The notes under the pieces are model-generated. The model was not told the origin of the DNA. It ran no database searches and worked only from the letters and a program-made list of their open reading frames with translations. A stretch of 64,000 nt of DNA from an uncultured virus (IMG/VR IMGVR_UViG_3300010338_001863) (taxonomy: Duplodnaviria; Heunggongvirae; Uroviricota; Caudoviricetes). The stretch is taken from the IMG/VR virus record IMGVR_UViG_3300010338_001863, one strand, 5' to 3'. Below, in pieces: positions 45,790 through 64,000 of the stretch. Position 1 is the stretch's first letter. Every line of letters begins with the position of its first letter. The translations under genes and the position numbers were made by a program.

Positions 45790-46236
45790 AACCTTTTACC
45801 TTAATACATCAGCAAAAGAAAGAATATGTATAAAATTAATAACTTCTGACAAATATATCAGAAAGGAGGAGAAATATATAAGCCAAAATACCCTTTTTAA
45901 ACTAAGTATATCTGTAAGGAAGAATATATAAACTAATAACTTTTAACTAATACATCAGTAAGGAATAGAATTAAAACCAATGAGTTTGGATAATTCACCA
46001 GCAAGGAGGAGAATTAAAACTAATGACTTTTTGGCTAATACATCAGTAAGGAGGGAGATTAGAACTAAGACTTTTGGCTAATACATCAGTAAGGAGGAGA
46101 ATTAAAACTAATGACTTTTTGGCTAATACATCAGTAAGGAGGGGGGATTAGAACTAATGACTTTTGGCTAATACATCAGTAAGGAGGGGGGATTAGAACT
46201 AATGACTTTTGGCTAATACATCAGTAAGGAGGGGGG
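45790..46236. repeat. ~10 tandem ~43-52-bp non-coding repeats (core TAATACATCAGTAAGGAG), iteron-like
   Basis: Core at ~45802, 45851, 45903, 45948, 45991, 46036, 46079, 46124, 46169, 46214; degenerate on the left, near-perfect on the right. Confidence 0.9.
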
Positions 46237-46559
46237 AGGGATAATTCCCCCCATCCCTCCTTTCCTCCTGCCCAAGAGAATAGGCGTGAGTAAAAAAACT
46301 TGGGGGATTGTGGTGTTAGATGCCCTCCTTACTTCCTAACTGATGTTACGTTCCCTCCTGCCTATGTGTGGAAGGTAGTTATCCTTCCAGTACTTCCTGT
46401 ATAGTTAGTGGTATCTAGCTACTTAAGTATCTTTTTTGGGGGGTGAGGGTTGCTAGATACCTCCTACCTGATAGAATGTGTATTTGTTTAATATAAGCAG
46501 GTAGTGGTTGAGATGGATATATGTGGGAGTTATATATTGTTTTAGTTAAGGATTTTTTG

Positions 46560-48749: not shown

Positions 48750-49031
48750 CTACTCAGTTATCCATTTTTTCAGGTTGTCCACAATGTCGGCCGGAAGGTA
48801 TGGGATTGTCGACTTGAGGACTATCTTCAGGTACAACATGTCGTCGTAGGTAAGGAAGATGGAGTTTCTCTTGCTAGCTAGGTATAGACAAACCCCTATC
48901 CTCGCATCCGAAAACTTAGGGTTGCTAAGTCCAGCAGCCCTGATCCTCCTAACCATCCCGCAAGAGCAGACATCCCCTTCCTCATGTGAGTCGTACTCCT
49001 CGTGCATCCTATACTCAACAAACTTATCCAT
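48750..49031 (-). CDS. HxxYxxH-CxC module protein
   Basis: MHEEYDSHEEGDVCSCG. Confidence 0.7.
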   Translation of the reverse strand: MDKFVEYRMHEEYDSHEEGDVCSCGMVRRIRAAGLSNPKFSDARIGVCLYLASKRNSIFLTYDDMLYLKIVLKSTIPYLPADIVDNLKKWITE

Positions 49032-49034
49032 ACA

Positions 49035-49373
49035 TCACCTCTTCTTAAGCGAATCGCCTACTATCTTGATTGTCTCAGATAGCTTGTCTTTCAGCTGGTC
49101 TGGGATGTCTGTCGCCTGCCCGGATAGGCAGTACCTTACTATCCTCAGCGGGATGGAATTGTCGGCTAATGCCAATTTCTGGAAAAACTCGACATACTTA
49201 GTCTGAAAGTATTTGCTTCCCAAGAACATCAACATCCCCGGCAACAGCTCCTCCTTAACTATGCCGACAAAGAAATCCATCCTCATCCCGCAAGAGCATA
49301 TATAATTAGTGTCGTGCGTCCCGTATTGTCCATGTAGCAAATATGCTGTATAGTCATACTTAATTTTATCCAT
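49035..49373 (-). CDS. HxxYxxH-CxC module protein
   Basis: LHGQYGTHDTNYICSCG; AAGGAGG RBS. Confidence 0.7.
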   Translation of the reverse strand: MDKIKYDYTAYLLHGQYGTHDTNYICSCGMRMDFFVGIVKEELLPGMLMFLGSKYFQTKYVEFFQKLALADNSIPLRIVRYCLSGQATDIPDQLKDKLSETIKIVGDSLKKR

Positions 49374-49399
49374 ACATTCCTCCTTGTTTTAAAAAAAAG

Positions 49400-49664
49400 T
49401 TATCCACAGGTTCCACATATCCCCCTTAAGAATCCCCCTAGTATTATTATTAATATAATATATATCTTTCTTTCTTTGGTTACTTTCTTTCTTTCTGTTG
49501 TTGATATGTTGATAAGTCTGTTGATAACTTTTTTTCTGCTTATTTTTTAAGGAGAATTTAGTCATAAAGTTATCCACAAGTTATCCACAGGTTATCAACA
49601 TTATCCACAGGATTTGGTGTTATCAACAGGTTTCAACAAGTTATCCACAGGAGGCTGTGGATAA
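49400..49664. promoter_or_regulatory. DnaA-box cluster
   Basis: TTATCCACA at 49400, 49570, 49581, 49601, 49641; reverse copy at 49656; TTATCAACA variants at 49592, 49620 and reverse at 49507, 49519; AT-rich tract 49441-49470. Confidence 0.8.
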
Positions 49665-49933
49665 GTGTTGTTAGGATTTAGGATGAATTCTTTAGTGGGT
49701 GTAAACTCTCGCTTCTTGTATTTTATATATCTGAGCATGAACTCAGGCATGTCGGTCCCCAGGATCCTAGCTTTATATATGCCTTTGCTTATATTTATTG
49801 AACCGAATGGGGTGGATAGGATACAATCGTTGTCGCAATAGACTATATGACCGTCTACGCGGCCTTTAGATATCGACATGTTGTATGCGAACGGTCTCGG
49901 ATTCTGCTTCCTTTTTGAAGTGATTTTAATCAA
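49601..49933 (-). CDS. paralog of the C-terminal third of 52053-53075 (possibly a fragment)
   Basis: Shared YN.SI..G......C....ILSTPFGSI...KGIYKA...G...P.F...Y..Y....FTPTKE.......YP..PVDN. Confidence 0.55.
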   Translation of the reverse strand: MIKITSKRKQNPRPFAYNMSISKGRVDGHIVYCDNDCILSTPFGSINISKGIYKARILGTDMPEFMLRYIKYKKREFTPTKEFILNPNNTYPQPPVDNLLKPVDNTKSCG

Positions 49934-50069
49934 TGTAATTGGTCCTATCTGGTATTCTGAGTTCTCTAATCCAACATAATCCTTAAATTTATTTATTATG
50001 TGGTCGTCAGTTTCTCATAGTCGGCGAGAAGAGAGAGCAGTACCTGTTCTATCGTGTCTTGATTTCTAT

Positions 50070-50594
50070 TCATACTTTCCTCCTTAAATCATAATAATAT
50101 ATTTTGTTTTTGTCATACCAAATATTGGTGTCTATTTTAAAAAACCCTAATATATTTTTAGGCAAATTATCAATGCAACAAGGCATAACAAATAAGTAAT
50201 CAAAAACATTAATTGCTGGTGCGTGACTATGTATATATATCCCAATCTTTGTTCTATTAGTGTATTTTGAAAAGTCAAATTCTTCAACTTTACATTTATA
50301 ACAACTTAATCTTTCAGTTCTATAATCCTTTATTTCTAAATTTGGGTCTATTGCTACAAATTCCCAATTCTTTATAAAATGTGCTACCATTAGGGAAAAA
50401 GTCGGTCTTTTGCCACATCCGACATCAAAAACAACAACATTATCTTTATTACTATAAACTGGCATATTCCTTAAAAAACCAAACATAGAATAACACTCGT
50501 TTATTTCTTTTAAATCAACTTTACCTAACTTACTTACTATGTCTAATGCTGATTTGTATTTAAAAAATCTTTCTATATACTTAAAACTTTTCAT
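50070..50594 (-). CDS. putative SAM-dependent methyltransferase-fold protein
   Basis: VFDVGCG motif I, VAIDP, H.H, MPCC. Confidence 0.65.
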   Translation of the reverse strand: MKSFKYIERFFKYKSALDIVSKLGKVDLKEINECYSMFGFLRNMPVYSNKDNVVVFDVGCGKRPTFSLMVAHFIKNWEFVAIDPNLEIKDYRTERLSCYKCKVEEFDFSKYTNRTKIGIYIHSHAPAINVFDYLFVMPCCIDNLPKNILGFFKIDTNIWYDKNKIYYYDLRRKV

Positions 50595-51358
50595 TTTCCC
50601 TCCTTTTTTATTTGTTCTTCTAAATATTTAACAACTTCCAGATGTCCATTTTCTCTTGCCTGTCGTAAAGCATAATAATTATCTGCGTGAATGTTAGCGC
50701 CTTTTTCAATTAAATATTTAACAATTTCCAAATGACCATTTCCGCTTGCCAAGTAGAGCGCCTCGTCAGCTTTTGCGTGGATATTGGCGCCCTGTTCTAC
50801 CAGATACTCCACAACATCCAGATAACCATTTCTACTCGCCCATCGGAGAGCATAGTCATCGTAAGCGTGGATATTCGCACCTTGCTCCACAAGATACTTT
50901 ACTACTTTCAAATGTCCATTTCTACTTGCTAAATTTAGAGAATATTCATTTAGTGTGTGTATATCCGCACCTTGCTTCACCAGATACTTCACAACATCAA
51001 GATGACCATTTCCACTCGCCCATCGGAGAGCAAAGTCATCGCCAGCGTGTATATTGGCGCCCTCTTCTACCAACATCTTTATTGTATTAAAATTAATTTT
51101 TCCAACATATTTCAAGTTTACAGCCCGTGCTTTGTATTTTTTAGGTAATGATGGATTTTCATATACTTCGCTAATAGGTTCTACTTCGTATAATTTTGTC
51201 CCATAGTTAAGAAACGCTAATATATCCTCTCTGGCAAAGTATATTCCACCGGGTGTACAATCTCCAGACGGATTGAAAGGTCTAAAATCCACATTATATC
51301 CTTCCTTGTAAACTATTCCTCTGTGACCTGCTGGATTAACTATCTTGTAAAATTTCAT
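50591..51358 (-). CDS. ankyrin-repeat protein
   Basis: Five 30-aa GANIHA.DD.AL..AS.NGHL.VVKYLVE repeats. Confidence 0.95.
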   Translation of the reverse strand: MKFYKIVNPAGHRGIVYKEGYNVDFRPFNPSGDCTPGGIYFAREDILAFLNYGTKLYEVEPISEVYENPSLPKKYKARAVNLKYVGKINFNTIKMLVEEGANIHAGDDFALRWASGNGHLDVVKYLVKQGADIHTLNEYSLNLASRNGHLKVVKYLVEQGANIHAYDDYALRWASRNGYLDVVEYLVEQGANIHAKADEALYLASGNGHLEIVKYLIEKGANIHADNYYALRQARENGHLEVVKYLEEQIKKEGK

Positions 51359-51380
51359 TTTTCCTCCTTAAATCATATAA

Positions 51381-51611
51381 TTATCTTAAACCATAAATAG
51401 ATAAATCTAAAAATCTATTCGTTTCATAAGCTTTTCTAATTTCATCTATAATCTCTTCATACGATTTGCTACTTTTATTCTTTTCAAAATCTATAAAATC
51501 AAATCTCAAATCATCAATTCTTAAATAATACCTCCAATTATCCGCATCAAAATCCACACATATAACCTTTACATTACTAACAAGTATTAAACTATTACCT
51601 ATTCTAATCAT
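51381..51611 (-). CDS. hypothetical protein
   Basis: AGGAGG RBS, ATGA coupling. Confidence 0.6.
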   Translation of the reverse strand: MIRIGNSLILVSNVKVICVDFDADNWRYYLRIDDLRFDFIDFEKNKSSKSYEEIIDEIRKAYETNRFLDLSIYGLR

Positions 51612-52060
51612 ACTTTCCTCCTTTTTGATTCTATGTATTCTTTCAAATTTTTAGGGATAATAGTTAAGAATGGAGGCTCCCAATCTTTATCTAGCTGTTT
51701 ACATTGATTTATGTAATCTTGTTTGTTTTTAAATAAATCAAATATTAGATAGGGATCTACTTCTAAGTAATATTGGTTTATTTGTACATTTGATACATAT
51801 AATATTTTCTTTTTGTAAGCATATAGGCTGATTAGCAATATTTTTTTTGCATTAGGGTATTTGTGGATTCCTTCTTTAAAGACGTATCTTAAGACATTTA
51901 TATTTTTGCAAAACCCACACTCACATACTCCAGATGTATCATGTATATGGGAGTTGTAAGCTTGATGCATTTTGAATTGATTAAAAGCTTGTTTTATCCC
52001 CATTTTAGATCTCTGTAATATCGAGATCTTTTTAAGTTCTTTTAATTTCTTCTCATTCAT
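51608..52060 (-). CDS. HxxYxxH-CxC module protein
   Basis: MHQAYNSHIHDTSGVCECG. Confidence 0.7.
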   Translation of the reverse strand: MNEKKLKELKKISILQRSKMGIKQAFNQFKMHQAYNSHIHDTSGVCECGFCKNINVLRYVFKEGIHKYPNAKKILLISLYAYKKKILYVSNVQINQYYLEVDPYLIFDLFKNKQDYINQCKQLDKDWEPPFLTIIPKNLKEYIESKRRKV

Positions 52061-53075
52061 ATTTCCTTTCCTTTTTCAAAAAGTTATCCACAGGATTATG
52101 TGGATAACTGCTGGACTGATCTACCCACAATTCTTTGGTCGGGGTGAATTTGTGTTTCCTGTATGCCATATATTTGTGGATGAATTTAGGGATTGGGATC
52201 CCTACTACGAATGCTTTATATATCCCTTTCGGGAGTATTATAGATCCGAATGGGGTAGAGAGTATGCTTCTTTTGTCGCAGAATATTATGTTGTCCTCTA
52301 TCTTCCCGTACTGGATGGATATGTTGTATGGGATAGGTTTGCGTTTGACCATTTTTAGATTATGTATTTCTTTCAAAGTAATCCTTCCAACCTGAAAGGA
52401 TGAACAAAGTACTTCTTTGTATATGTTAGGCTCATATATCCTTTTGTCCTTGCTGAAGGACACAGGGATCATATATTCGGTCCCCTCCCTGGTTCGGTTG
52501 TATGTAAAAGTTAGCTTGGCCCATTTGACGCTGAATATGTATACGCTAAAGTTTTCATCGTATTTTCTTCTAACGGATAAATTAAACCCATCCTTCTCAT
52601 CCATTATCCCTGAGTCTCTTAAGATCTGGTATCCTCTTTCTGTGCTATGTGGAGGTAGGATTATCTTGAAAGCCTTAGCCATTGAATAGGTTTTGTTTAA
52701 TCCGGCATATGTTTTCTTTAAAATCTTAGTTCTTATTTTTAGGGGTAGTTTAGCCAGGGCCTGGAGGATCTTCCCTTTAGTGGAGGAAAGGGATATTGAT
52801 TCTCTGGTTATAATGAATTCTATATATTTCCTGTCTTGACAGTTCTTCCCGTTTATTTCCCATACTATAGGCATTTTGTTGTTTTTTATTAAGTCTCTGA
52901 GCGTTGAAACTTCTAAGTTATACGGTGTATAAACATATTTATCTATGTTCATATCTGTAGAATTAAGCAGGTTTATCTGTCTTTTAGAAAGAGAAAGTTT
53001 GGCCCCACACTCACATTTGAAATCTTTTTCAAATACATGGGAATGATATATATCATGTAATTTATATATTTCCAT
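52053..53075 (-). CDS. HxxYxxH-CxC module protein
   Basis: LHDIYHSHVFEKDFKCECG; AAGGAG RBS. Confidence 0.75.
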   Translation of the reverse strand: MEIYKLHDIYHSHVFEKDFKCECGAKLSLSKRQINLLNSTDMNIDKYVYTPYNLEVSTLRDLIKNNKMPIVWEINGKNCQDRKYIEFIITRESISLSSTKGKILQALAKLPLKIRTKILKKTYAGLNKTYSMAKAFKIILPPHSTERGYQILRDSGIMDEKDGFNLSVRRKYDENFSVYIFSVKWAKLTFTYNRTREGTEYMIPVSFSKDKRIYEPNIYKEVLCSSFQVGRITLKEIHNLKMVKRKPIPYNISIQYGKIEDNIIFCDKRSILSTPFGSIILPKGIYKAFVVGIPIPKFIHKYMAYRKHKFTPTKELWVDQSSSYPHNPVDNFLKKERKYE

Positions 53076-53120
53076 AACGGGTCTCCTTTTTGGGAAAGTA
53101 TTTTATTGGGGAGTAGTTCG

Positions 53121-53282
53121 GGCGCAGGAGATATATATGTTGAATGGTTTTTTGTATTAGGAGGTACAGAACCATTATTAAGGAGTATCTCCTGCGCCAA
53201 ACAGAGAACAAATTCTCCTTATTTGCTAAGTGGCCGGCCCGGGTAAGGGGGATATGGGATTAAGGGGTTCCCGGGCCGGTCA
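53121..53282. other. two GC-rich intergenic inverted repeats
   Basis: GGCGCAGGAGATA (53121)/TATCTCCTGCGCC (53186) and TGGCCGGCCCGGG (53231)/CCCGGGCCGGTCA (~53270). Confidence 0.75.
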
Positions 53283-53287
53283 ACAGG

Positions 53288-53629
53288 TCACAACGAAGTG
53301 TTTCTTGCTTCTAGGAGCCTCTTGTACACAGAGATCTTTTTAGCAATCAGTTCTAGTTGCATCCCTATGTTGAAAGACTCTCGTCTAGCTAGCCACAGCT
53401 GTTCGATCTTGTTGAATAACTTAGAATCCAGATAGGCTGACCTGGTTTCCGAATTCTTCTGGGCCGCATAATCTGGATCGCTAAGTATTATCTCGGTCTT
53501 AGCTTGAGTAACAATTTTCTCAAGCCTAAGCTCCTCGTTGGCTGCTTCGATCTTCTTTGCCGTCAGTTTCTCATAGTCGGCAAGAAGAGAGAGCAGTACC
53601 TGCTCTATCGCGTCTTGACTTCTATTCAT
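53288..53629 (-). CDS. coiled-coil hypothetical protein
   Basis: GGAGG RBS before ATG 53629; KNSETRSAYL motif. Confidence 0.65.
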   Translation of the reverse strand: MNRSQDAIEQVLLSLLADYEKLTAKKIEAANEELRLEKIVTQAKTEIILSDPDYAAQKNSETRSAYLDSKLFNKIEQLWLARRESFNIGMQLELIAKKISVYKRLLEARNTSL

Positions 53630-53661
53630 ACATTCCTCCTTTGTTTTTGGATAGATATATA

Positions 53662-54477
53662 TCATCTATCCTTTTTTTTAATTCTAACAAACCTATTTTT
53701 ATATTTTTCATATATATACCTATTAAAAGCAAAATCATAGTTTGGGAGCTTATTAGTTTTTCTTAAATAAGATAACAAGTAATTTTCCAAATCTGTTAAT
53801 GTTTGTATGTTATCTTCATAAAAAGATTTCATATCATCGTCGTCTTCTTCTTCGAATTTAATTAGCCCACAAGAACATACATTCCCAACGAAATCATGTG
53901 AATCATATTGGTCGTGGAGACTCATTAGGTTTACTTTGTCATCCAGGTCTTTTTCTACTTTTTTACATAAATATTCTAGGAAATCCAAAACCTTTTCTTC
54001 GTTGTATTCTTTGGTTTCGATTACATATTTTTTCGCATATAAAATATCTTCATCATACAACAGATTGTCTTTATTCAGAAGATAAAATGTTTTTTGGGGG
54101 GAAATGTTTTTTGTCTTTCTTTTTTCAAAATAATCGCAATTTTCTTTGGAATCTAAATATAAATCATTTTTATAATTAAAAACAGTATCCGATATATGTA
54201 AATAAATTTTTGGAGTTATCCCGCAATCTATTGCTCTTTCTATTATATCTTTTTGCGCTAACTCTAATGGAAGCTGGATATTATTTAAAAACATATGCAT
54301 AACAGCTTCCGGCTTACTGAAAAACTTAAAATGTTCCAAATATATTTCCATTGCATTAGGAGGATAATATGGAGAAAGGGCTCCACATTCACATATCCCT
54401 CTATTGTAATTGTGGGATTTGTGAGAATCGTGGAGCCTCCTCTTTGCTAATATAGCTTTAATATCATTTCTGTCCAT
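53662..54477 (-). CDS. protein with two HxxYxxH-CxC modules
   Basis: LHDSHKSHNYNRGICECG and LHDQYDSHDFVGNVCSCG. Confidence 0.75.
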   Translation of the reverse strand: MDRNDIKAILAKRRLHDSHKSHNYNRGICECGALSPYYPPNAMEIYLEHFKFFSKPEAVMHMFLNNIQLPLELAQKDIIERAIDCGITPKIYLHISDTVFNYKNDLYLDSKENCDYFEKRKTKNISPQKTFYLLNKDNLLYDEDILYAKKYVIETKEYNEEKVLDFLEYLCKKVEKDLDDKVNLMSLHDQYDSHDFVGNVCSCGLIKFEEEDDDDMKSFYEDNIQTLTDLENYLLSYLRKTNKLPNYDFAFNRYIYEKYKNRFVRIKKKDR

Positions 54478-54778
54478 TATAAGTTTTCTTTCTTTCCTTC
54501 ATCCTTTTTTCGTATTTTTTGATCAACTCATAGAGCTTCTTTGTGGGATAGATTTTATAAATATGCCCATTTGCTCTAGGGTCATTATATCTAATCATTC
54601 CCATTTTTCTCATGAATCTTAGGTATCTGGATACGGAGATCGAGCCCGGGCCGAGAGGGATCAGATTCCTTTCTATGTGATAGGTATGGATTGTTATCGG
54701 CCCCCTCTTCTTCGGCGCTCTATGTTCCAATATTCTATTAGCAACCATATAAGCCACATGGCTTCTTATCATTTTCAT
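54464..54778 (-). CDS. putative winged-helix DNA-binding protein
   Basis: PGSISVSRYLRFMRKMGMIRY...YKI pattern; basic. Confidence 0.5.
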   Translation of the reverse strand: MKMIRSHVAYMVANRILEHRAPKKRGPITIHTYHIERNLIPLGPGSISVSRYLRFMRKMGMIRYNDPRANGHIYKIYPTKKLYELIKKYEKRMKERKKTYNGQK

Positions 54779-55077
54779 GTTCGTCCTCCTTTTTGATTAT
54801 TATACTTTTTTTTGATGTATTTGTCAATATAGTATTTGAATTTCTTTTTCTTCGACTTTATGTATACATCAAATTGTTGTGCTATGGTTTTGTTCCCCAT
54901 CTTGATGTTGAAGATCAGCAATCTGTCAAACTCGGATGTATAGTCCTTGTTTGACATTATGCTGAACATTAGGCCGGGGATCTTCCCGCAAGAGCACACT
55001 TTGAATAGCTCCTTGTCGTGGGAATTGTAAGCCTGATGCATCTTGTAGAGGTTGGGGTCCATGTTGTATTTCTTCAT
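54775..55077 (-). CDS. HxxYxxH-CxC module protein
   Basis: MHQAYNSHDKELFKVCSCG. Confidence 0.7.
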   Translation of the reverse strand: MKKYNMDPNLYKMHQAYNSHDKELFKVCSCGKIPGLMFSIMSNKDYTSEFDRLLIFNIKMGNKTIAQQFDVYIKSKKKKFKYYIDKYIKKKYNNQKGGRT

Positions 55078-55092
55078 AATCTCCCCCTTCTT

Positions 55093-55707
55093 TTAGTGAG
55101 CTTTGAACAAGACTCCTTTCTTCTCGGCCGATTTGCTGAAGCAGATCTTACATGGATTGTTGCAAGTTATTTTCTCTTTTGTTAAGTTGGCTGGGCAGAC
55201 GAAAGCCCCGGTCTTCTGCTGGACTTCCCTCAATACCTTCATGTCCTTGTAGTAATTGGGCTTCCCGTCTATGATGGAATTGATCAGGATGAAGTTCGGG
55301 AGGGATCGGAGCTTATCCAATTCCTTGCTCAATTTTTTATCTAGTACTCTTTTGGTGTAAGCATATCCGATCACATCCGGCGTGTCCTTGAATACCTGAT
55401 ATATCTTATCGATGTATTCTTTACTGTAGAAGTCGCCGCTGTCGTGGATCCTTACATATTTGACTCCTTTCTTTGTCTTCAGGTATTCTATTTCCTCTTT
55501 GAGCTTGTTGATGAAGTCCGGCTTCTGGGATGCTGCATAGTTCTCAGCTCTTTTTTCCTTGACTACATCCAGCCTATATTTCCCTTTGCTGGCGTAGCAG
55601 CCGGCGCATCTGAAGAGACAAGTCTCCCCGGCCGGCAGACCGAATGACGGGATATTCCCGCCTTTCAGCTTGGTGTTGTTGTCGTAGGACAACAGTTTTA
55701 GTTTCAT
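55093..55707 (-). CDS. phage Gp88-like protein (Fe-S/radical SAM-related)
   Basis: N.KL, F.LPA..TC...C..CYA, VRIHDSGDFYS, YAYTK, VCPA..C..C..C. Confidence 0.75.
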   Translation of the reverse strand: MKLKLLSYDNNTKLKGGNIPSFGLPAGETCLFRCAGCYASKGKYRLDVVKEKRAENYAASQKPDFINKLKEEIEYLKTKKGVKYVRIHDSGDFYSKEYIDKIYQVFKDTPDVIGYAYTKRVLDKKLSKELDKLRSLPNFILINSIIDGKPNYYKDMKVLREVQQKTGAFVCPANLTKEKITCNNPCKICFSKSAEKKGVLFKAH

Positions 55708-55744
55708 TGATACCTCCTATTTTTTTGTTTTAATTTTTTAAATT

Positions 55745-56002
55745 CTATTTCTCCCTATTTTTACCATATTCTCTCCTTTTTCTAGGGATTTTGCAGCCGT
55801 TGGCCTTCATCCCTCCCGGGAGTATATGCCCTGTATTTACATGAAAGCTATATCTTTTGACGAACAACTCGTCCTTTTCGAATAGCCCCCGGCATTTGTC
55901 ACACTCGTATAACCCACTTCTTATCTGACAAACATTGTCGCAGAAGCATTCGGGACATACATATCTGGTATCCGATATGGACTCTTGTTTTCTTCTTCCC
56001 AT
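55745..56002 (-). CDS. small zinc-ribbon protein
   Basis: CPEC ... CDKC. Confidence 0.6.
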   Translation of the reverse strand: MGRRKQESISDTRYVCPECFCDNVCQIRSGLYECDKCRGLFEKDELFVKRYSFHVNTGHILPGGMKANGCKIPRKRREYGKNREK

Positions 56003-56014
56003 AATATCCCCCTT

Positions 56015-56353
56015 TTAATCTACTTTGATTTCTTCAGAATACATCAACATATCCAGGACCCTGAGGAATTGGGTTTTGGATATCCGATAAAACTTGAGTT
56101 CCTTTTCAGGGATCCCCATCTCAACAAGCTCATCCTCAACCTCCTTTCTGGTAGGGAATCCTTTGTTGCTATAAGCTCTTATGACCGCCTGGATCTCCTT
56201 CTTAGATAATACCCCTCCATTGTTATAGGATAGTTTTTCAAACTTATCTTTGGTAATAATGTTTGGGGCGATCTTCCTGAGGGTGGCCAGGATTACCCTC
56301 CAGGAGAAGTAAGGTACAGTTAGGTTATACTTAGCTTTTAATACTACTGACAT
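56015..56353 (-). CDS. hypothetical protein
   Basis: GGAGG RBS before ATG 56353. Confidence 0.6.
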   Translation of the reverse strand: MSVVLKAKYNLTVPYFSWRVILATLRKIAPNIITKDKFEKLSYNNGGVLSKKEIQAVIRAYSNKGFPTRKEVEDELVEMGIPEKELKFYRISKTQFLRVLDMLMYSEEIKVD

Positions 56354-56364
56354 GTTTTCCTCCT

Positions 56365-56841
56365 TTATAATATTGGGGATAAGTCTATCCCTTTGTCCCA
56401 GCATACTGATTCGCATCCTGTCTTAATGGCGGCGTATATTATACTCATTTTATTCCTGGGTTTGCGTATTGTATATTGGCTATTGATTCTGATTTCCACC
56501 TCATCCCTGTATTGATCATATATAGCTTCCAGGACAAACAATCTATTCTTGTGCCAGATAGCTCTTTTGGTCTTGTCGTAGATGTTGAAGGCTATGTTCA
56601 AGATGTTGAAGGTTATGTCCAAACACCCCTCCAAAGTACGGCCGGATGCGGCAAGACGATTGTGTATCTGTTTAATTATATACAATAGATGCGGGGAGTC
56701 ATATATTTTGGCCAAGTATTCCGAATAAGACATGTGTTTAGTAGGCATCAAACACTCCCCGCATATTCCATCCCCTCTGTCTATGTGGGAGCCATAACCT
56801 TCGTGGAGGGTTTGGATTTTTTGTAATTCCTTTTCGGTCAT
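56365..56841 (-). CDS. HxxYxxH-CxxC module protein
   Basis: LHEGYGSHIDRGDGICGEC. Confidence 0.7.
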   Translation of the reverse strand: MTEKELQKIQTLHEGYGSHIDRGDGICGECLMPTKHMSYSEYLAKIYDSPHLLYIIKQIHNRLAASGRTLEGCLDITFNILNIAFNIYDKTKRAIWHKNRLFVLEAIYDQYRDEVEIRINSQYTIRKPRNKMSIIYAAIKTGCESVCWDKGIDLSPIL

Positions 56842-56845
56842 AACA

Positions 56846-57004
56846 TTACTCCCTTTCTTCTAATATCAGGATGTTGTATACCCCATCGTCGCATTTATGG
56901 ACAAATCCTTCTATATCTTCCATGTACTTTGTGTCATCCAGGAATTTGTCCCAGTCTTTTATCCCATAGCATAAATCTCCTATGTAGCAATCCCCTTCTT
57001 TCAT
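56846..57004 (-). CDS. small hypothetical protein (52 aa)
   Basis: Hand-translated MKEGDCYIGDLCYGIKDW...LEERE*; GGAGG RBS, ATGA-coupled. Confidence 0.5.
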   Translation of the reverse strand: MKEGDCYIGDLCYGIKDWDKFLDDTKYMEDIEGFVHKCDDGVYNILILEERE

Positions 57005-57252
57005 TTTGCCACCTCCCTTACGTTTTCTATTATTTCTTTTATTAAGGGATGGTTTTTGTTGGTTGTTCTTATGGTCGCTTTGCTCCTTTCAGTTTCGATG
57101 CTCACTTCTTCTCCATCCAACATTATAGCATATTCTCCGTCGATTTCTTCGTATTCCATCCCGGCTTCCACAAACTCCTCTGTGTCATGGAGTTTCTGGA
57201 GTAAGTATTCTAGGTCCTCTTCGAATTTCCTGTTCTTTATTTTGATTACCAT
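57001..57252 (-). CDS. acidic hypothetical protein, copy 1
   Basis: AAGGAGGT RBS, MVIKIKNRKFEED... Confidence 0.7.
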   Translation of the reverse strand: MVIKIKNRKFEEDLEYLLQKLHDTEEFVEAGMEYEEIDGEYAIMLDGEEVSIETERSKATIRTTNKNHPLIKEIIENVREVAK

Positions 57253-57322
57253 TTTACCTCCTTTAATTCTTCCCAAGTTAAGATTACATAGCATAAATCT
57301 CCTATGTAGTAATCCCCTTCTT

Positions 57323-57574
57323 TCATTTTGCCACCTCCTTTACGTTTTCTATTATTTCTTTTATTAAGGGATGGTTTTTGTTGGTTGTTCTTATGGTCGC
57401 TCTGCTCCTTTCAGTTTCGATACTCACTTCTTCTCCATCCAACATTATAGCATATTCTCCATCGATTTCTTCGTATTCCATCCCGGCCTCCACAAACTCC
57501 TCTGTGTCATGGAGTTTCTGGAGTAAGTATTCTAGGTCCTCTTCGAATTTCCTGTTCTTTATTTTGATTACCAT
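57323..57574 (-). CDS. acidic hypothetical protein, copy 2
   Basis: As copy 1, with two amino-acid differences. Confidence 0.7.
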   Translation of the reverse strand: MVIKIKNRKFEEDLEYLLQKLHDTEEFVEAGMEYEEIDGEYAIMLDGEEVSIETERSRATIRTTNKNHPLIKEIIENVKEVAK

Positions 57575-57644
57575 TTTACCTCCTTTAATTCTTCCCAAGT
57601 TAAGATTACATAGCATAAATCTCCTATGTAGTAATCCCCTTCTT

Positions 57645-57896
57645 TCATTTTGCCACCTCCTTTACGTTTTCTATTATTTCTTTTATTAAGGGATGGTTTT
57701 TGTTGGTTGTTCTTATGGTCGCTCTGCTCCTTTCAGTTTCGATACTCACTTCTTCTCCATCCAACATTATAGCATATTCTCCATCGATTTCTTCGTATTC
57801 CATCCCGGCCTCCACAAACTCCTCTGTGTCATGGAGTTTCTGGAGTAAGTATTCTAGGTCCTCTTCGAATTTCCTGTTCTTTATTTTGATTACCAT
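57645..57896 (-). CDS. acidic hypothetical protein, copy 3
   Basis: Apparently identical to copy 2. Confidence 0.7.
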   Translation of the reverse strand: MVIKIKNRKFEEDLEYLLQKLHDTEEFVEAGMEYEEIDGEYAIMLDGEEVSIETERSRATIRTTNKNHPLIKEIIENVKEVAK

Positions 57897-58081
57897 TTTA
57901 CCTCCTTTAATTCTTCCCAAGTTAAGATTACAAAGTTGTCTTTGTATTTCTTTTTCATTTGTTTCCTATAATCCATTTCCAGGTCGAAGCATTCCTTACA
58001 TATATATATCCCAGCTCCACCGCCTAATTCTAACCGTTTTACCTCTCTTTCTTGGATACACTTTTCACAATATCCTTTCAT
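57890..58081 (-). CDS. small zinc-finger protein
   Basis: CEKC ... ICKEC; AAGGAGG RBS. Confidence 0.6.
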   Translation of the reverse strand: MKGYCEKCIQEREVKRLELGGGAGIYICKECFDLEMDYRKQMKKKYKDNFVILTWEELKEVKW

Positions 58082-58094
58082 ATTCTACCTCCTT

Positions 58095-58529
58095 TTATCT
58101 ATGAAAATCGAATGAGGCAACCCAGGCTTTACCTATCAAATCTTTTGTTATCTCATCCCCTTCCAAATATACATATCCATCCCCTTTCCTTAGGTCGTCG
58201 GGGGCATCTACCCAGCTATGCAATTTTCTTTTTATGTATTTATATATTTTCTCAGTCATGAGATGGACGTCTCCTTTATATGTTGGGCCTAAGTATCGAT
58301 CTTTTCTTATTTTGTAATCAGGATATACCATCATCGTCTGATGGTTCTTGCTCCATTCGACCCAAGTAGGGTCACACATAAACCCGTCTGTTGTCAGCGG
58401 ATTATCATTGCCTTCATCATCATAGAAGCATGCTACGTTTTTAGATAGGTAATCTTCCATCCTATCTAAAACATGTTCTACCATGTCGTCTTTTTTCTTT
58501 TTACTTATTACAATTACTCTTACGTGCAT
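58095..58529 (-). CDS. hypothetical protein
   Basis: AAGGAGG RBS; MH..V N-terminus and DFH C-terminus. Confidence 0.65.
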   Translation of the reverse strand: MHVRVIVISKKKKDDMVEHVLDRMEDYLSKNVACFYDDEGNDNPLTTDGFMCDPTWVEWSKNHQTMMVYPDYKIRKDRYLGPTYKGDVHLMTEKIYKYIKRKLHSWVDAPDDLRKGDGYVYLEGDEITKDLIGKAWVASFDFHR

Positions 58530-58956
58530 TTTCCCTCCTTATTTTTTCACATTCTTCTTTTACTATCTTCTCAAATTTCTCTATACATATCCACTCTCTT
58601 TCATATTCTTTCCCATTTATCCTTATCGCTTTATTTTCTCCAATTATATCTTTTATATGTATGTGGTATATTTCCCCTTTGTAATAGAAAAGCCTTTCCC
58701 CTGTTACTGGTATTATGTTTATCTTGGATAGTTCTTTTAACACTTTCTCTTTTTTAATTTTGTTGGTTTTGCATATAAATTCCAGCATCTCGTTGAATAA
58801 ACCTTTCTTATATGCTACAGCCAAATATTCCTCAATCCCAAACTTCCTTTCTATCTTAAGACACTCCTTACAACAAAGCCCATATCTTTCTACATTGTGG
58901 GCATTGTATAAATCGTGTAGTTTCTGGAGAGTAAGTAGTTCTTTTAATTTATTCAT
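58501..58956 (-). CDS. HxxYxxH-CxxC module protein (alternative start 59028)
   Basis: LHDLYNAHNVERYGLCCKEC; duplicated RBS+ATG. Confidence 0.7.
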   Translation of the reverse strand: MNKLKELLTLQKLHDLYNAHNVERYGLCCKECLKIERKFGIEEYLAVAYKKGLFNEMLEFICKTNKIKKEKVLKELSKINIIPVTGERLFYYKGEIYHIHIKDIIGENKAIRINGKEYEREWICIEKFEKIVKEECEKIRRENARKSNCNK

Positions 58957-59059
58957 TTTGTCCTCCTTTGTCTGTTGATTCTTAACCATCACGCGCTTGA
59001 TTACGACGTAGACGAGGCATATATTCATTTTGTCCTCCTTTGTCTGTTGATTCTTAACC
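58950..59059. repeat. 38-bp direct repeat x2 separated by 34 nt
   Basis: TATTCATTTTGTCCTCCTTTGTCTGTTGATTCTTAACC at 58950 and 59022. Confidence 0.9.
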
Positions 59060-59699
59060 TGTATATGTATGACCCAAGCTCTATGAAGCATCTTTGTTCT
59101 TCGGCTTCTACCTTCAGCAATATATTTATCCCCGTATGTATCCCTTTCTTTTTAACGAGATGATACAGATATCTCATGGGATATTTGTTTAATATTTTTA
59201 TTAAATGTCCTGGTGTTTTTCTGTTCATACGATAGTCCCATACTATTTTTTTGTTCCCGTAGAAGTTAGCCATTTTAGCCGTATGGTCAATCTTGTGGAA
59301 TTCCCTATATTTGAATTGTTCCTGAGGCCAGGCCATTAATAATATCCTACATCTCTTTGTTAGTCCTAATACGCATTTGTTAAACGGGGCATCTTTTATA
59401 GCTTGGTCTATGATAGGATGTTCCCCCACAATCTCTTTCAATTTCTTTATTTTGTTGGGGTATTTAGCTGCGACAAATCCGAAGACCAAAGCTTGCATTT
59501 GCTTATTCTCCGACAGAGCTAACCCTACCAGATTGTTGACGGGAAGTTTTAACATCTTCGAGAAGCCGAAAACATTTTGGGTTATATCCCCACATTCGCA
59601 AACAATATGTTTGGAATGTATCCTATATCTGTCGTGGATGTTCTTTAATATTTTTATCTTATCCGTTTCTTTAGTAATATCTTTCATAATCCCATCCAT
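59025..59699 (-). CDS. HxxYxxH-CxC module protein (paralog of 59671-60399)
   Basis: IHDRYRIHSKHIVCECG; shares LVFG and PII.QA.KDAP.NK with its neighbour. Confidence 0.75.
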   Translation of the reverse strand: MDGIMKDITKETDKIKILKNIHDRYRIHSKHIVCECGDITQNVFGFSKMLKLPVNNLVGLALSENKQMQALVFGFVAAKYPNKIKKLKEIVGEHPIIDQAIKDAPFNKCVLGLTKRCRILLMAWPQEQFKYREFHKIDHTAKMANFYGNKKIVWDYRMNRKTPGHLIKILNKYPMRYLYHLVKKKGIHTGINILLKVEAEEQRCFIELGSYIYRLRINRQRRTK

Positions 59700-60399
59700 A
59701 TGCTCCTCTAATATTTGCTTGGTCTCTTAATTTATCGATGATTTCGGAAGGTTTTTTCCCATATTTTATTAAATCAATTATATTTCTTATTTGTCTAGGG
59801 ATAGTTATCCATCTAATCACCCCATCCCTCAAGTTTTTAAAAGCAACCAACCAGCCAGTTTTGACTCCCTTTTTCTTTAGGTAGTAATAAAATACATCGA
59901 ATGAATATTTGTTTGTTATTCTATATACCCAGTTGTTCCCGCTGTAATACCCATACCCATAATACCATTTAATATATCCACCCCAGAATACGGGCATGGT
60001 TTTCCTTTCCCATCCTTTCTTTTTAGAGATGCCGTTATATGGATTTATAGGTTCAGTTATTTTGAAGGTATTCCTAGATTTAGTAACATACTCAGCTATA
60101 TCTTTGTTTATCGGAGCGTCCTTCTTTGCTTGGGCTATTATTGGGTTCTTGGTTTCCAAAACAGACTCAAGCTTTTCTAGTTTGCTTGGGCTGCTGTAAG
60201 CCAAAATCCCAAACACTAAACTCTGCAATTGCTTGCTCCCCTCCAAAGCTATAGCTTTGAGGCTTGGTAAAGGAAGGTCTTTTATCTCTGATAAAGAAAA
60301 GTCTTCCCTTATTATCTTGCCACACTCGCAGATAAATCTGCCGGAGTGGGTATCGTATTGGTCGTGCATTTGTCTCAGTGTTTTCAAGTCAATGTTCAT
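59671..60399 (-). CDS. HxxYxxH-CxC module protein
   Basis: MHDQYDTHSGRFICECG. Confidence 0.75.
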   Translation of the reverse strand: MNIDLKTLRQMHDQYDTHSGRFICECGKIIREDFSLSEIKDLPLPSLKAIALEGSKQLQSLVFGILAYSSPSKLEKLESVLETKNPIIAQAKKDAPINKDIAEYVTKSRNTFKITEPINPYNGISKKKGWERKTMPVFWGGYIKWYYGYGYYSGNNWVYRITNKYSFDVFYYYLKKKGVKTGWLVAFKNLRDGVIRWITIPRQIRNIIDLIKYGKKPSEIIDKLRDQANIRGAYGWDYERYY

Positions 60400-60413
60400 T
60401 TTATCCTCCTTTT

Positions 60414-61103
60414 TTAATTAACATGTTCCCCATTCCAGTTAATCCCTTTTACAATATCCTTTCTTAATTTATTGATATATATACTAGGGGAAGAAGTATA
60501 TTTTAGGAATTCGGCTACTCTCCTTATTCTTGGTCTTACCACAATATATCTATATGGTTTAGTTATGCTAGGTTTTATATATTTAAACACTCCAAATATC
60601 CCGCTATGCATATTCTTTATTTTGTTTATTGTCAAATATATATCTGAAACCCAATATCTAAATAGGTATTTAGGTTTATATCCCAATTTTTTAAATATTT
60701 TTTCTTTTGGTTCATCCCCTAGGTAAAGAGATATATCCCATTTTCTTGTTTTTTTTTGGGAACTATATGGATTTAATTGTGTGAATTTTATAGATATTCC
60801 GCCCATACTTAATATGTCTTCGTTCTCTTCTTTTTCTTTTTCTACTATTTTCAGCAAGATATTTTCGGGATTTTCCTCTATCAACCTTTTTACCTTTGCG
60901 TGACATCTGTATCTCATAATCCCTAAAATAATTAGCTTGAAGCTGGCTGGTTCATCCGAATTTAACAACATCTCTAATCCTTTAAAAGAGATGTTGTCGC
61001 ATTCCGACATCGTGAAATATGTTTTAATTCTCCCACACTCACATATAGGAGCTTTGTCATGGGTGTGGTATTGTTCGTGTAGAGTATACATCATATTATT
61101 CAT
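60414..61103 (-). CDS. HxxYxxH-CxC module protein
   Basis: LHEQYHTHDKAPICECG. Confidence 0.75.
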   Translation of the reverse strand: MNNMMYTLHEQYHTHDKAPICECGRIKTYFTMSECDNISFKGLEMLLNSDEPASFKLIILGIMRYRCHAKVKRLIEENPENILLKIVEKEKEENEDILSMGGISIKFTQLNPYSSQKKTRKWDISLYLGDEPKEKIFKKLGYKPKYLFRYWVSDIYLTINKIKNMHSGIFGVFKYIKPSITKPYRYIVVRPRIRRVAEFLKYTSSPSIYINKLRKDIVKGINWNGEHVN

Positions 61104-61840
61104 TTTATCCTCCTTATATTATAAACCCCAGGTAATAATTTCCTAGGATAAAAATTCTTTGGCTGGATATATTGTTCTTCCTCTATTTTAATTAAATCAG
61201 TATTCAGTATTTTCATCCTGTTCTTTTTAGAGAATTTTATATCTTTCAAATTGTATTTAGGCAATTCTACTCCACTCCAATTCTTCTCAAACACTACTAA
61301 GTCTCCTATTATTGTGAAACATAATTGAGATAGTTCTGGGGAGAATTCAAATTTTTCATATATCCCATCCATCCTTTTGGCGTATAGAGTATATCTTAAA
61401 CTAATGTTTTGGGGGTTATAATTTCTTATTACGCTGTTGTATTTATTGAATTCAAGTATCCCTTCGCCTACACATTTAACTTTAAAAGGGATAAGATTAG
61501 GAGTAAATATTAGAGACATATCCTTAACTTTTTGGTGAAGCCATGGAGCCCATTCCCAATCTACTATTCCTTCACATATCTTATTAAGTAAACCTAATGT
61601 ATCTGAGTTTATTTTTATGTTCTTTAGTTTCTGTAAAGCTTTCTTTTCTGTTTCTGTATCTTTGACCCCATTTATTATTCCCATGTTAGTTATAAGTTCT
61701 TTAGCGCTAATCTCTTCCAGGTCATGATAGTCCAACATCCCATTCTTTATAACAGCTCGACAGGATTTACAGAAGCAGTTCCCAGCTATGTCGTGAGAAT
61801 CATATAGGTCATGCAATATTCTTAATTGCCTTTTGTTCAT
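61100..61840 (-). CDS. HxxYxxH-CxCxxC module protein (paralog of the next gene)
   Basis: LHDLYDSHDIAGNCFCKSC; shared PNLIPFKVK, IGD, KFS.K. Confidence 0.75.
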   Translation of the reverse strand: MNKRQLRILHDLYDSHDIAGNCFCKSCRAVIKNGMLDYHDLEEISAKELITNMGIINGVKDTETEKKALQKLKNIKINSDTLGLLNKICEGIVDWEWAPWLHQKVKDMSLIFTPNLIPFKVKCVGEGILEFNKYNSVIRNYNPQNISLRYTLYAKRMDGIYEKFEFSPELSQLCFTIIGDLVVFEKNWSGVELPKYNLKDIKFSKKNRMKILNTDLIKIEEEQYIQPKNFYPRKLLPGVYNIRRIK

Positions 61841-61851
61841 AGCATCTCCTT

Positions 61852-62610
61852 TTATATTTGTTTTGCTCTGTAGGAACCTATATAAAGAACACCTGGCGAG
61901 TATCTTGGAATTTCAACCTTCTGAGTTTCAAGTACCTCAATTTCAGATTTGTTTTTAAATATTACTTTGTCCTTATTGGAGAATTTGGCATACTTAAGTT
62001 CATAATCGTTCAATTTACAATTCTTCCCAGCAGGGATAAGCAGCATATCTCCTATCACATCAACAGCCAAATTGGCCGCAGACGGAGGGATTTTGTTTTC
62101 AGTATACCTATTGTTGTCGAGCTTAGAATAAACATAATATTTTTCATAATATTTTTCATAAGAAAATTTTCTATATATTATGCGTTTTATAGTTAAATAA
62201 CTATTCATATTGTATTCTCTTACCCCTCTTACCCCTCTTGCTTTGACTTTGAAGGGGATTAAATTAGGATAATTTTTCAGGGATATTTTTTCTAAAGTTG
62301 GGGATAGATATTCGCCCATATAATAATCTACCTCTCTATCCTCTATACATTTGTTTAATAGCATCAGGAGATTGTCGGAGATAGGCTCTTTCTCCATCCT
62401 GCGAAACAAGTTCTCTAAAACTTGCGATGTGCTTACCCCAGAGATAAGTTCAGCGTTTTCCAACAATTCCTGATTAGTCATTGCTTGGAGGTCTTTAGCG
62501 TATAGAATACGATGTCCTACCAAGCTTCTGCATGTCTTGCAGAAACACCTGCCTACTAATTCGTGAGCGTCGTATTGGTCATGCAATATCTTTAATTGTT
62601 CTTTGGTCAT
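61852..62610 (-). CDS. HxxYxxH-CxCxxC module protein
   Basis: LHDQYDAHELVGRCFCKTC; GGAG RBS before ATG 62610. Confidence 0.75.
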   Translation of the reverse strand: MTKEQLKILHDQYDAHELVGRCFCKTCRSLVGHRILYAKDLQAMTNQELLENAELISGVSTSQVLENLFRRMEKEPISDNLLMLLNKCIEDREVDYYMGEYLSPTLEKISLKNYPNLIPFKVKARGVRGVREYNMNSYLTIKRIIYRKFSYEKYYEKYYVYSKLDNNRYTENKIPPSAANLAVDVIGDMLLIPAGKNCKLNDYELKYAKFSNKDKVIFKNKSEIEVLETQKVEIPRYSPGVLYIGSYRAKQI

Positions 62611-63290
62611 GCTTCCTCCCATTGGACTTTAGTGCGTTCCATAAGTATCTTACTAAATCCACCATATGAGATTATTTCTTTTACTTTGTCTATATTGTTG
62701 TTGGTATAATTCAAATATAGAGGGCTATTTTTTGCATCCCTAATTTTATCTTGCATGTAGTCCAAAATTTCCTTTACATCGTTAATGTTTCCTTTTATGT
62801 TAGAGATTATCCTACACATTTGACTTATATATCTCAATCTCTCCCTTTCTTTATCTATAAAATAGCATATGATTTGTTTTGGTATTTGTATCCCATAGTA
62901 ATCTATTTGGGAAAGAATCGCACAATCAAAATTGTCTTTGTAAATTCTTTCTAATTCCTCTTTTGTGGTAATTATCCCTTTGGCTAACTTTAATGCTATA
63001 TTATATGTCTTCTCCTTAATCAATTTATCTATTTCTTCTGAGGTCACATTCTTTTTCAGAAGGAGAGCTTCAAATAAAACATATTGTTCGTTAGCCTTGT
63101 TCTTTATTATCTTTTCTAAGATAAGATTAAAGTCCCCAATCTGTTCAAGAGTTTTCTTGGGAAGGTATTTGGGAGGGATTAGGTTTTTAGCAAATCCACA
63201 ATCCTTACACACCAAATCCCTCGTCCTTGCCTTTATGAAGTCGTGGGAATTATATATTTCATGTAAATTATGTATTTTATTTATATCCAT
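62607..63290 (-). CDS. HxxYxxH-CxxC module protein
   Basis: LHEIYNSHDFIKARTRDLVCKDCG. Confidence 0.75.
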   Translation of the reverse strand: MDINKIHNLHEIYNSHDFIKARTRDLVCKDCGFAKNLIPPKYLPKKTLEQIGDFNLILEKIIKNKANEQYVLFEALLLKKNVTSEEIDKLIKEKTYNIALKLAKGIITTKEELERIYKDNFDCAILSQIDYYGIQIPKQIICYFIDKERERLRYISQMCRIISNIKGNINDVKEILDYMQDKIRDAKNSPLYLNYTNNNIDKVKEIISYGGFSKILMERTKVQWEEA

Positions 63291-63291
63291 A

Positions 63292-63537
63292 TTATCCTCC
63301 TTTATCTTCCATTATTTTTTTGTGGAAGATGCTCATTTCTGCGGCTTCTATCTCGCCTTTAGTGTATCCTTTCTTCAGCGTTTTAGATATCATAGTCATA
63401 AACATCCCTGCTTCCTCAGCGGTTATCTTCCCCGATATTGCTAATACTCTGAATATCCCAGCCAGAATTAGTATGTCTTCTTTAGCATTTTTTATTTTTT
63501 TAGTTTTATTATCTATTATTTCTTTTATTTCTTTCAT
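63292..63537 (-). CDS. hypothetical protein
   Basis: AGGAGG RBS; 81 aa. Confidence 0.6.
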   Translation of the reverse strand: MKEIKEIIDNKTKKIKNAKEDILILAGIFRVLAISGKITAEEAGMFMTMISKTLKKGYTKGEIEAAEMSIFHKKIMEDKGG

Positions 63538-64000
63538 TTCTTCCTCCTTTCCCGAACACGTCGGACAACCCTAAGAATTTCTTCTCTCCCATATCGCTAA
63601 TAGTCAGGAATTCACCAAACTCCTGCTTCATGTAGCTATATAACTTATTACCTCTTACTCTTCTTATTATATGTAGCAAAGAATAAGAAAAGCTTTTCCT
63701 CATACGATTTATCTCTTCGGGGTTAGCTTCTAAGAGGTCGATTATCATTTGCTGGTCTATCTTGTCGATTATGTTTTCTTTGATTATAAAGCTCCACAAG
63801 TCATGCAATTGGGCATATCTCAATATTGGAGTAGTATATATCTTCCTCGTCAAAAATATGCTTACCAGCAATACCCTGTATAGATATATATAATTAGTCC
63901 TGTCGCATTCTTTTATTAGCTCTTCTTGATTGAATGGGATTTTGGAATACAACAGGCTATATAATCTAACAATTAAATTGTTGTCCTTGTTGTTATATAT
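63509..64000 (-). CDS. hypothetical protein (5'-partial; frame is open to the window end)
   Basis: No stop between 63952 and 64000 in this frame. Confidence 0.55.
   Translation of the reverse strand: MYNNKDNNLIVRLYSLLYSKIPFNQEELIKECDRTNYIYLYRVLLVSIFLTRKIYTTPILRYAQLHDLWSFIIKENIIDKIDQQMIIDLLEANPEEINRMRKSFSYSLLHIIRRVRGNKLYSYMKQEFGEFLTISDMGEKKFLGLSDVFGKGGRNERNKRNNR

Follow-up and report, generated by a model that had tools for sequence, protein, structure and literature searches.

The window analysed here is a stretch of 64,000 nucleotides from an uncultured tailed virus of the class Caudoviricetes (IMG/VR record IMGVR_UViG_3300010338_001863), and from 48.7 kb onwards it carries an array of diverse genes that share a short N-terminal module with two His and two Cys residues, spaced H-x5-H-x4-11-C-x1-2-C (C-x-C in most copies). 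The module family is real and statistically secure. Counting the part of the same phage that lies beyond the window, the module occurs at least 18 times, in 17 genes or more, along ~21 kb, with about as many module-less small genes interspersed. As judged by sequence comparison, the module is a new small domain, probably zinc-binding, of a narrow lineage of uncultured phages. The explanation favoured here, given a little better than an even chance of being correct, is that a structural His2Cys2 zinc knuckle has expanded specifically in this lineage, within a fast-rearranging accessory region.

The count of 15 copies in 14 open reading frames (ORFs) made in the earlier note is borne out by a regular expression, H..[YHFW]..H.{3,12}C.{1,2}C, applied to the six-frame translation of all 64 kb. 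It gave 15 matches, all on the minus strand, in 14 ORFs at 48.7–63.3 kb (two of them in the ORF at 53662–54477), and none elsewhere in the window; the number expected by chance is 0.08 on average, with a maximum of 2 (200 shuffles in 2-kb blocks). Residue shuffles of the 14 proteins (n = 500) produced a mean of 0.002 matches. A hidden Markov model (HMM) built from the 15 copies was scanned against 1224 stop-to-stop segments, taken from the window and from 6.5 kb of L011, a metagenome contig of the same phage; each of the 15 copies scores 40–57 bits, and the best non-member segment 6.0 bits. An AGGAGG-like ribosome-binding site precedes the ATG in most of the 14 window genes, and the codons for the conserved residues differ between copies, which indicates that selection acts on the protein. 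These two features together mark the members as real genes.

L011 is 99.9% identical to the window over the shared 13.7 kb and continues for 6.4 kb past its end. The HMM search of the genome, a check that the earlier note had proposed, refound all 15 copies and located three further ones past the window end (28.2, 18.1 and 13.2 bits), so the array does not stop at 63290 as first supposed. The nearest of these genes encodes 222 residues (L011 6208–6876) and is cut by the window end: its C-terminal 163 residues are encoded at 63509–64000 on the minus strand, and its N-terminus, with the module (28.2 bits, E = 6e-8), lies just beyond. Two more module genes follow on L011, one of them divergent. 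Across the 17 genes, the first His falls at residue 7–32. Two other genes inside the array lie on this extension (L011 3869–6157, ~0.2–2.5 kb past the window end): one for a MoxR-like AAA ATPase, the other for a DUF2201 protein with an HExxH metallopeptidase-like part and a von Willebrand factor A (VWA) domain.

In 25 copies, seven of them from divergent relatives, the H, H, C and C are invariant, and the Tyr between the two His residues is present in 24. The first His is commonly flanked by Leu, Met or Ile on its N-terminal side and by Asp, Glu or Gln on the other. The second His often follows a Ser or Thr, the first Cys a hydrophobic residue, and C-x-C is commonly succeeded by Gly. A loop of 4–11 residues, variable in sequence, connects the second His with the first Cys. 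Four invariant Cys/His ligands, the general mark of a structural zinc domain, are found in all 25 copies and are kept in 13 orthologue pairs, and from this invariant His2Cys2 set the module is probably a structural zinc-binding knuckle. The module has held up as a discrete unit under protein-level selection, and a His2Cys2 set is typical of a structural zinc site.

Predicted structures outline the shape of the module (genes are named here by their lower coordinate). The AlphaFold2 model of the 93-residue 48750 protein has a pLDDT (predicted local distance difference test) of 79.4 and a pTM (predicted template modelling score) of 0.71, and consists of a helix at residues 3–13, the knuckle at 21–27 and three further helices. 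The first His and the Tyr lie at the end of the first helix, the second His in the loop that follows, and the Cys pair in a bridged hairpin; the module blocks reach 84–88, level with the best blocks of the body. The model of the 150-residue 51608 protein is poor (pLDDT 54.4, too low for its body fold to be compared with others), with module blocks of 67–83 against 37–63 elsewhere. In both models the module has the same shape, with a helix and a loop leading to bridged strands where the Cys pair lies.

Under the favoured explanation, the domain would occupy ~30 residues at the N-terminus, starting with an alpha-helix that ends in [LM]-H-[DEQ]-x-Y-[DN]-[ST]-H, continuing through the variable loop, and closing with a small beta knuckle, hydrophobic-C-x(1-2)-C-G. 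One structural zinc ion would most likely be held by the four His and Cys residues, with the Tyr, the preceding Leu/Met and the Gly forming a mini-core and turn; all of the strongly conserved positions can be assigned to one of three roles: ligand, mini-core or turn. The module would then be a fold nucleus and not a conserved docking surface. The family would have grown within one extended leftward operon, through tandem duplication, unequal recombination, fusion and deletion, with specific functions supplied by 15 families of C-terminal bodies. Host-interaction, take-over and counter-defence roles are typical of variable accessory regions, and the functions of the bodies would most likely be of these kinds.

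Several points weigh against such a reading. His residues at positions i and i+6 do not lie on one face of a regular helix, and the placing of the second His after the helix comes from a model based on a shallow alignment. The neighbours of the ligands (H-[DE], Y-[DN], [ST]-H) are polar or acidic and semi-conserved, and could form a small shared surface. The variety of bodies may also represent deep divergence of one ancestral fold, two bodies having been modelled, one of them poorly.

The semi-conserved acidic or polar positions next to the ligands would suit an alternative, raised in the earlier note, in which the module is a docking or addressing tag, binding one hub such as host RNA polymerase, a protease, the capsid or a phage machine. 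The same idea draws on the location of the module at the extreme N-terminus in 17 genes, on its heading 15 unrelated body families, and on the presence of the MoxR-like AAA ATPase and DUF2201 protein inside the array. Against it, no position is conserved besides the ligands and core residues; the loop, moreover, varies in length, and the surface positions of the module change as fast as the bodies among orthologues. In 13 close orthologue pairs, substitutions occur at 12 of 248 non-ligand module positions compared with 138 of 2500 body positions, and none at the H, Y, H, C and C. Since module substitutions are as frequent as those in the bodies, a structural zinc knuckle fits better than a conserved docking surface, and the docking tag is considered unlikely. 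Rather improbable is the stronger claim that a zinc-dependent addressing handle recruits at least 15 structurally different payloads to one machine, which could be the array's own MoxR-like AAA ATPase and VWA/metallopeptidase pair, or a host hub (RNA polymerase).

By BLAST, 59025/59671/60414 and 61100/61852 are full-length paralogues (59025 vs 59671, E = 6e-30; 60414 vs 59671, E = 1e-16; 61100 vs 61852, E = 3e-41). With the module removed there are 15 body families, whose 105 profile pairs give a best probability of 9.7%, and single-sequence hhalign comparisons link only orthologues and the members of those paralogue groups. Searches with the bodies of 59671 and 52053 found no homologues outside their own orthologues; for the 52053 body, this was the single orthologue P0012. 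At the level of sequence, the bodies can thus be held to be unrelated. The view that they are mostly so stands for the 15 families, which lack cross-similarity, but not for the two full-length paralogue groups, and plain paralogue expansion, which the earlier note had named as grounds for giving up its idea, applies to 5 of the 14 genes.

Plain paralogue expansion across the whole array would mean one ancestral whole protein, with bodies diverged past recognition and a module that was never portable. The graded similarity, with groups of three and two genes, is in keeping with this, as are two results obtained with the module included: BLAST alignments between groups extend over 98–234 residues at 20–27% identity (E 1e-3 to 1e-5), and the family profiles of 48750 and 49035 align over 47 columns (97.6% probability), running ~25 residues beyond the module. 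On the other side stand the lack of any cross-family signal once the module is removed, body lengths that range from 33 to 316 residues, and the modelled structures, all-helical for the 48750 body and with strands (at low confidence) for 51608. Furthermore, the module occurs twice in one gene, and the extra C-terminal domain of another gene also stands alone. Taken together, descent of all members from a single whole protein looks quite unlikely.

The earlier note recognised no named family with this His2-Cys2 spacing, and none emerged from Pfam, PHROGs, NCBIfam or the PDB. The 14 full proteins matched nothing relevant in Pfam-A, PHROGs v4 (both at E<=0.1) or NCBIfam 20 (E<=0.05). When the 25 module segments were searched alone, no family was matched by more than one of them (best E 0.03 in Pfam, 0.08 in PHROGs), and a profile search of the PDB gave nothing significant (best E 0.89). 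Fold searches with the 93-residue model were equally negative, with best values of E 1.5 (Foldseek against the PDB), E 0.84 (BFVD) and Z 5.7 (VIA-align wide), the last being within the noise for helical proteins. ESM Atlas provided no usable lead for two members, its models being poor (pLDDT 0.46 and 0.38), and no description of the motif (as HxxYxxH, CxCG, or a His2Cys2 or HHCC knuckle) was found in the literature.

Known sites of similar composition differ in their details. Retroviral integrase and ZAS domains share with the module the ligand order His, His, Cys, Cys and an N-terminal location ahead of other domains. The integrase HHCC domain has the spacing H-x3-7-H-x23-32-C-x2-C and folds as a three-helix bundle, and was rejected because the spacing differs, the model has one helix and a knuckle, and there is no Pfam match. 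The ZAS/ChrR anti-sigma site (zf-HC2) is H-x3-C-x2-C with an upstream His or Cys ~25 residues away; it was rejected on the gap from the second His to the Cys (4–11, never 3), the mostly C-x-C form, and again the absence of a Pfam match. The DYW deaminase domain has a cytidine deaminase fold with HxE and CxxC catalytic motifs and a C-terminal C-x-C-x-DYW. It too was set aside, as no window protein matches DYW_deaminase and the module is N-terminal and only ~30 residues long; a weak echo is a PDB profile match to the C-terminal zinc site of a synthetic PPR-DYW protein (E 2.6). In the account given for the solved domain of the plant DYW deaminase OTP86, the structural Zn2 site consists of a distant His (H924) and an H-x6-C-x-C stretch (H947, C954 and C956; PMC7611903). 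As far as that account extends, the sites are alike in their His2Cys2 ligands and in a C-x-C with a His a few residues upstream, but the two His are 6 residues apart in the module and 23 in DYW, and the deaminase fold is absent here. The likeness is a precedent for the site, not a relationship.

Small zinc knuckles are often nucleic-acid binders, which counts towards a further alternative, in which the module is a nucleic-acid-binding knuckle and its carriers are transcription factors or nucleoid- or RNA-associated proteins anchored to DNA or RNA. The basic character of the bodies would agree with this (isoelectric point, pI, 8.9–10.1 in 13 of the 15 body segments of the window genes), although high pI is common in Lys-rich, AT-rich genomes, and for P0019, P0024 and P0025, which are distant orthologues, the bodies are acidic (pI 5.0–5.4). 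Around its ligands the module is acidic to neutral, and the Pfam, PHROGs and NCBIfam searches returned no helix-turn-helix or other nucleic-acid-binding family. A precedent comes from Bacillus phage G, where Iyer et al. (2021, Viruses 13:63, PMC7824862) describe a lineage-specific expansion of a zinc ribbon to ~35 copies and propose, in the part of their account that deals with it, a transcription-factor or structural DNA-binding role. On balance, nucleic-acid binding as the shared function seems rather unlikely.

The phage G expansion appears to be the closest described phenomenon. Going by its published description, both cases involve a small zinc-binding unit (predicted, for the present module) multiplied within one large phage genome. 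They are compared here by description, and on that footing the module departs from the ribbon in its His-His-Cys-Cys order with C-x-C; the phage G proteins are whole-protein paralogues, whereas the present unit keeps to the N-terminus and precedes bodies that are unrelated. In the BFVD fold search, phage G Gp327 appeared only at E 2.1. The number of copies and genes in the array, together with the confinement of 22 of 29 profile matches to this phage group, has the form of a lineage-specific expansion of a small domain.

Those 29 matches came from a search of the module profile against 1.84 billion representative proteins (E<=0.001), a library that covers public genomes. Fifteen are near-identical orthologues or fragments of window genes and seven are divergent module proteins; the remainder are six secreted or lipoproteins with tandem repeats and one repeat protein without Cys. 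A word-indexed search, covering 5.8 billion clusters, gave 19 matches, all in the same phage group and none named. The divergent proteins are orthologues of particular window genes, in three subfamilies, with both module and body kept at 29–38% identity: P0019 and P0025 correspond to 48750 (34–38%), P0024, P0039 and P0029 to 49035, and P0018 and P0023 to 51608 (29–31%, the body kept too). For 59671, the 5.8 billion clusters held only three orthologues, at 84–90% identity. The orthologue cluster of 54775 is present on a contig of 124,853 bp. In IMG/VR, neither protein-based scans nor a degenerate DNA pattern revealed a relative, the 10 matches of the pattern being at chance level. A 92-residue phage protein there (L002 2970–3248, also L008) has a C-terminal H-D-x-Y-x2-H-x5-C-x-C-G-L, which could be chance or a distant cousin. 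Members of the phage group were detected in 20 sequencing runs from 13 studies (two runs possibly being the window's own source), from activated sludge, hot springs, an oil field, the subsurface and sediment, and three of the four runs examined contained long pieces ~98% identical to the window. No RNA data are listed among the sequencing runs with the group.

The six bacterial matches (P0017, P0021, P0022, P0026, P0028 and P0030) are secreted or lipoproteins of Oscillospiraceae and others, carrying up to six or more tandem units of the repeat H-x-H-x-[FY]-[VI]-x-G-x-C-x-C-G-x-x-D-P-x-Y; one of them is labelled by its source as Ruminococcaceae or Oscillospiraceae. They were matched by the module profile with E values between 5e-6 and 8e-4, and the hhalign comparison aligns 19 columns with a probability of 95.6%. 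What is held in common is the half from the second His to C-x-C-G; unlike the module, the repeat does not have the L-H-D-x-Y helix, and it is tandem and extracellular, not single and N-terminal. The repeats match no curated family, with weak matches to the C-terminal end of DYW_deaminase (E 0.006–0.09). The repeat protein without Cys (P0020, 1246 residues) contains 11 or more repeats that include KRQLHDQYDR, matching the helix half of the module only, and shows weak matches to a minor-capsid-protein family.

The array genes, all on the minus strand, are described here from left to right, together with signs of rearrangement. The first two, 48750–49031 (93 residues; module 48960–49004) and 49035–49373 (112 residues; module 49290–49334), are followed by a module-less ORF of 110 residues at 49601–49933, also on the minus strand, and by 51608–52060 (150 residues; module 51917–51967) and 52053–53075 (340 residues; module 53007–53057). 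The C-terminal 90 residues of 52053 resemble the ORF at 49601 (49% identity over 89 residues, E 4e-31). Upstream of that ORF, an 81-bp repeat at 50005–50085 (minus strand) is 94% identical to 53561–53641, and comprises the ribosome-binding site and first 25 codons of the gene at 53288–53665, followed by a stop. From the repeat and the ORF 49601 homology together, the block 53288–52053 would have been duplicated, the copy then losing the module and the middle of 52053; the repeat marks a segmental duplication inside the array.

The two-module gene, 53662–54477 (271 residues), has modules at 54385–54432 and 53869–53916, scoring 48.5 and 49.6 bits. Its second unit has a Met three residues before the module, and in one relative this unit is a separate protein of 85 residues (P0013); the suggestion that the gene arose by fusion looks correct on these two counts. 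Next is 54775–55077 (100 residues; module 54988–55038). Recent gene conversion, considered for the very similar modules of 51608 and 54775, was dropped, with only four of eight synonymous third positions in agreement. The gene at 56365–56841 (158 residues; module 56752–56805, of the C-x2-C form) is truncated in a relative by a 579-bp deletion (56086>56666), and P0011 is a 72-residue form. At 56943–57886 there are three tandem units of 322 bp, 95–100% identical, each encoding a protein of 91–97 residues; L011, from the same phage, has two copies of this 97-residue gene versus three in the window. Small array genes at 55745–56002 and 57890–58081 have ordinary CxxC...CxxC zinc-ribbon patterns, which indicates that the region is generally rich in small metal-binding proteins.

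The gene at 58501–58956 encodes 151 residues from its MNKLKELL start (module 58861–58917, of the CC-x2-C form); the Met at 58956 is likely to be the true start, as in the orthologue P0016. Its ribosome-binding site and start region are included in a 72-bp tandem duplication (58947–59059) that is absent from the relatives X4 and X9. The three members of the larger paralogue group follow, at 59025–59699 (224 residues; module 59592–59636), 59671–60399 (242 residues; module 60322–60366) and 60414–61103 (229 residues; module 61035–61079). Contigs of X9 and X13 join across most of 59025, and contigs of relatives also join across a methylase and ankyrin block, part of 56365 and the triplicated 97-residue gene. 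One relative has a 66-residue module protein, P0027, from outside the window's module gene set; the longest contig is 15,193 bp both for this protein and for P0003, the 59671 orthologue. The smaller paralogue group consists of 61100–61840 (246 residues; module 61769–61813, of the C-x-C-x2-C form) and 61852–62622 (256 residues as listed; module 62539–62583). The latter likely starts at the MTKEQ Met at 62610, as in P0015, giving 252 residues, and a ribosome-binding site precedes this second ATG. The last complete module gene in the window, 62607–63290 (227 residues; module 63198–63263), has the longest loop, of 11 residues, and is of the C-x2-C form.

The window is part of a large tailed double-stranded DNA phage. 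Searches with the DNA and proteins of the region, and with the module, revealed no relative among cultured phages, and the best matches to cultured-phage proteins have identities of 24% (helicase) and 37% (recombinase). Genes at 1–29 kb run rightward, and encode RCC1-repeat proteins, virion or tail-fibre proteins and two giant ORFs of RNA-repair type. The latter (16564–26692; 1529 and 1861 residues) look like a fused RNA-repair toolkit, with RNA or DNA ligase, 2'-5' RNA ligase, CCA-adding or poly(A) polymerase, HD and primase-small-subunit domains. Leftward genes occupy the rest of the window, from past its end down to 29 kb, and among their products are an SNF2-type helicase, a DnaB-type helicase, a primase, a UvsX-like recombinase, a dUTPase and an endonuclease VII-like HNH protein. 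There are no tRNA genes in the window. The GC content is 0.24–0.33 at 1–44 kb versus 0.32–0.44 at 44–64 kb, so that by this measure the composition of the accessory region is unlike the rest of the phage.

The helicase, primase and recombinase genes follow downstream of the module array and share its strand. Many of the neighbouring array genes overlap by a few bases, which suggests one long leftward operon. A position upstream of replication genes on the same strand is the usual location for early or take-over genes, and from gene order only we infer that the array genes are expressed early. A promoter and terminator scan of the region was not above shuffled controls (66 vs 60.5 and 15 vs 12.7). 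Between the replication genes and the array side there is an ORF-poor, GC-richer gap (45.6–47.0 kb), in which six 45-nt tandem repeats, each with an AAGGAGG-like core, occur at 45941–46251; these could be iterons or a regulatory region.

Overall, the array represents an unusually clean instance of a single N-terminal unit placed ahead of numerous unrelated bodies, and the phage accessory region in which it lies has visibly been rearranged from one close relative to the next. Should the module prove to be a handle by which a common partner is bound, the targets of an entire group of orphan phage proteins could be sought together through it, and the locus would be a modular effector array, with a logic like that of the shared adaptor domains in poxvirus and giant-virus host-range families. 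If it is only a fold nucleus, it would still be a useful marker for this uncultured phage group, and an example of metal ligands outliving all other similarity in fast-evolving phage genes.

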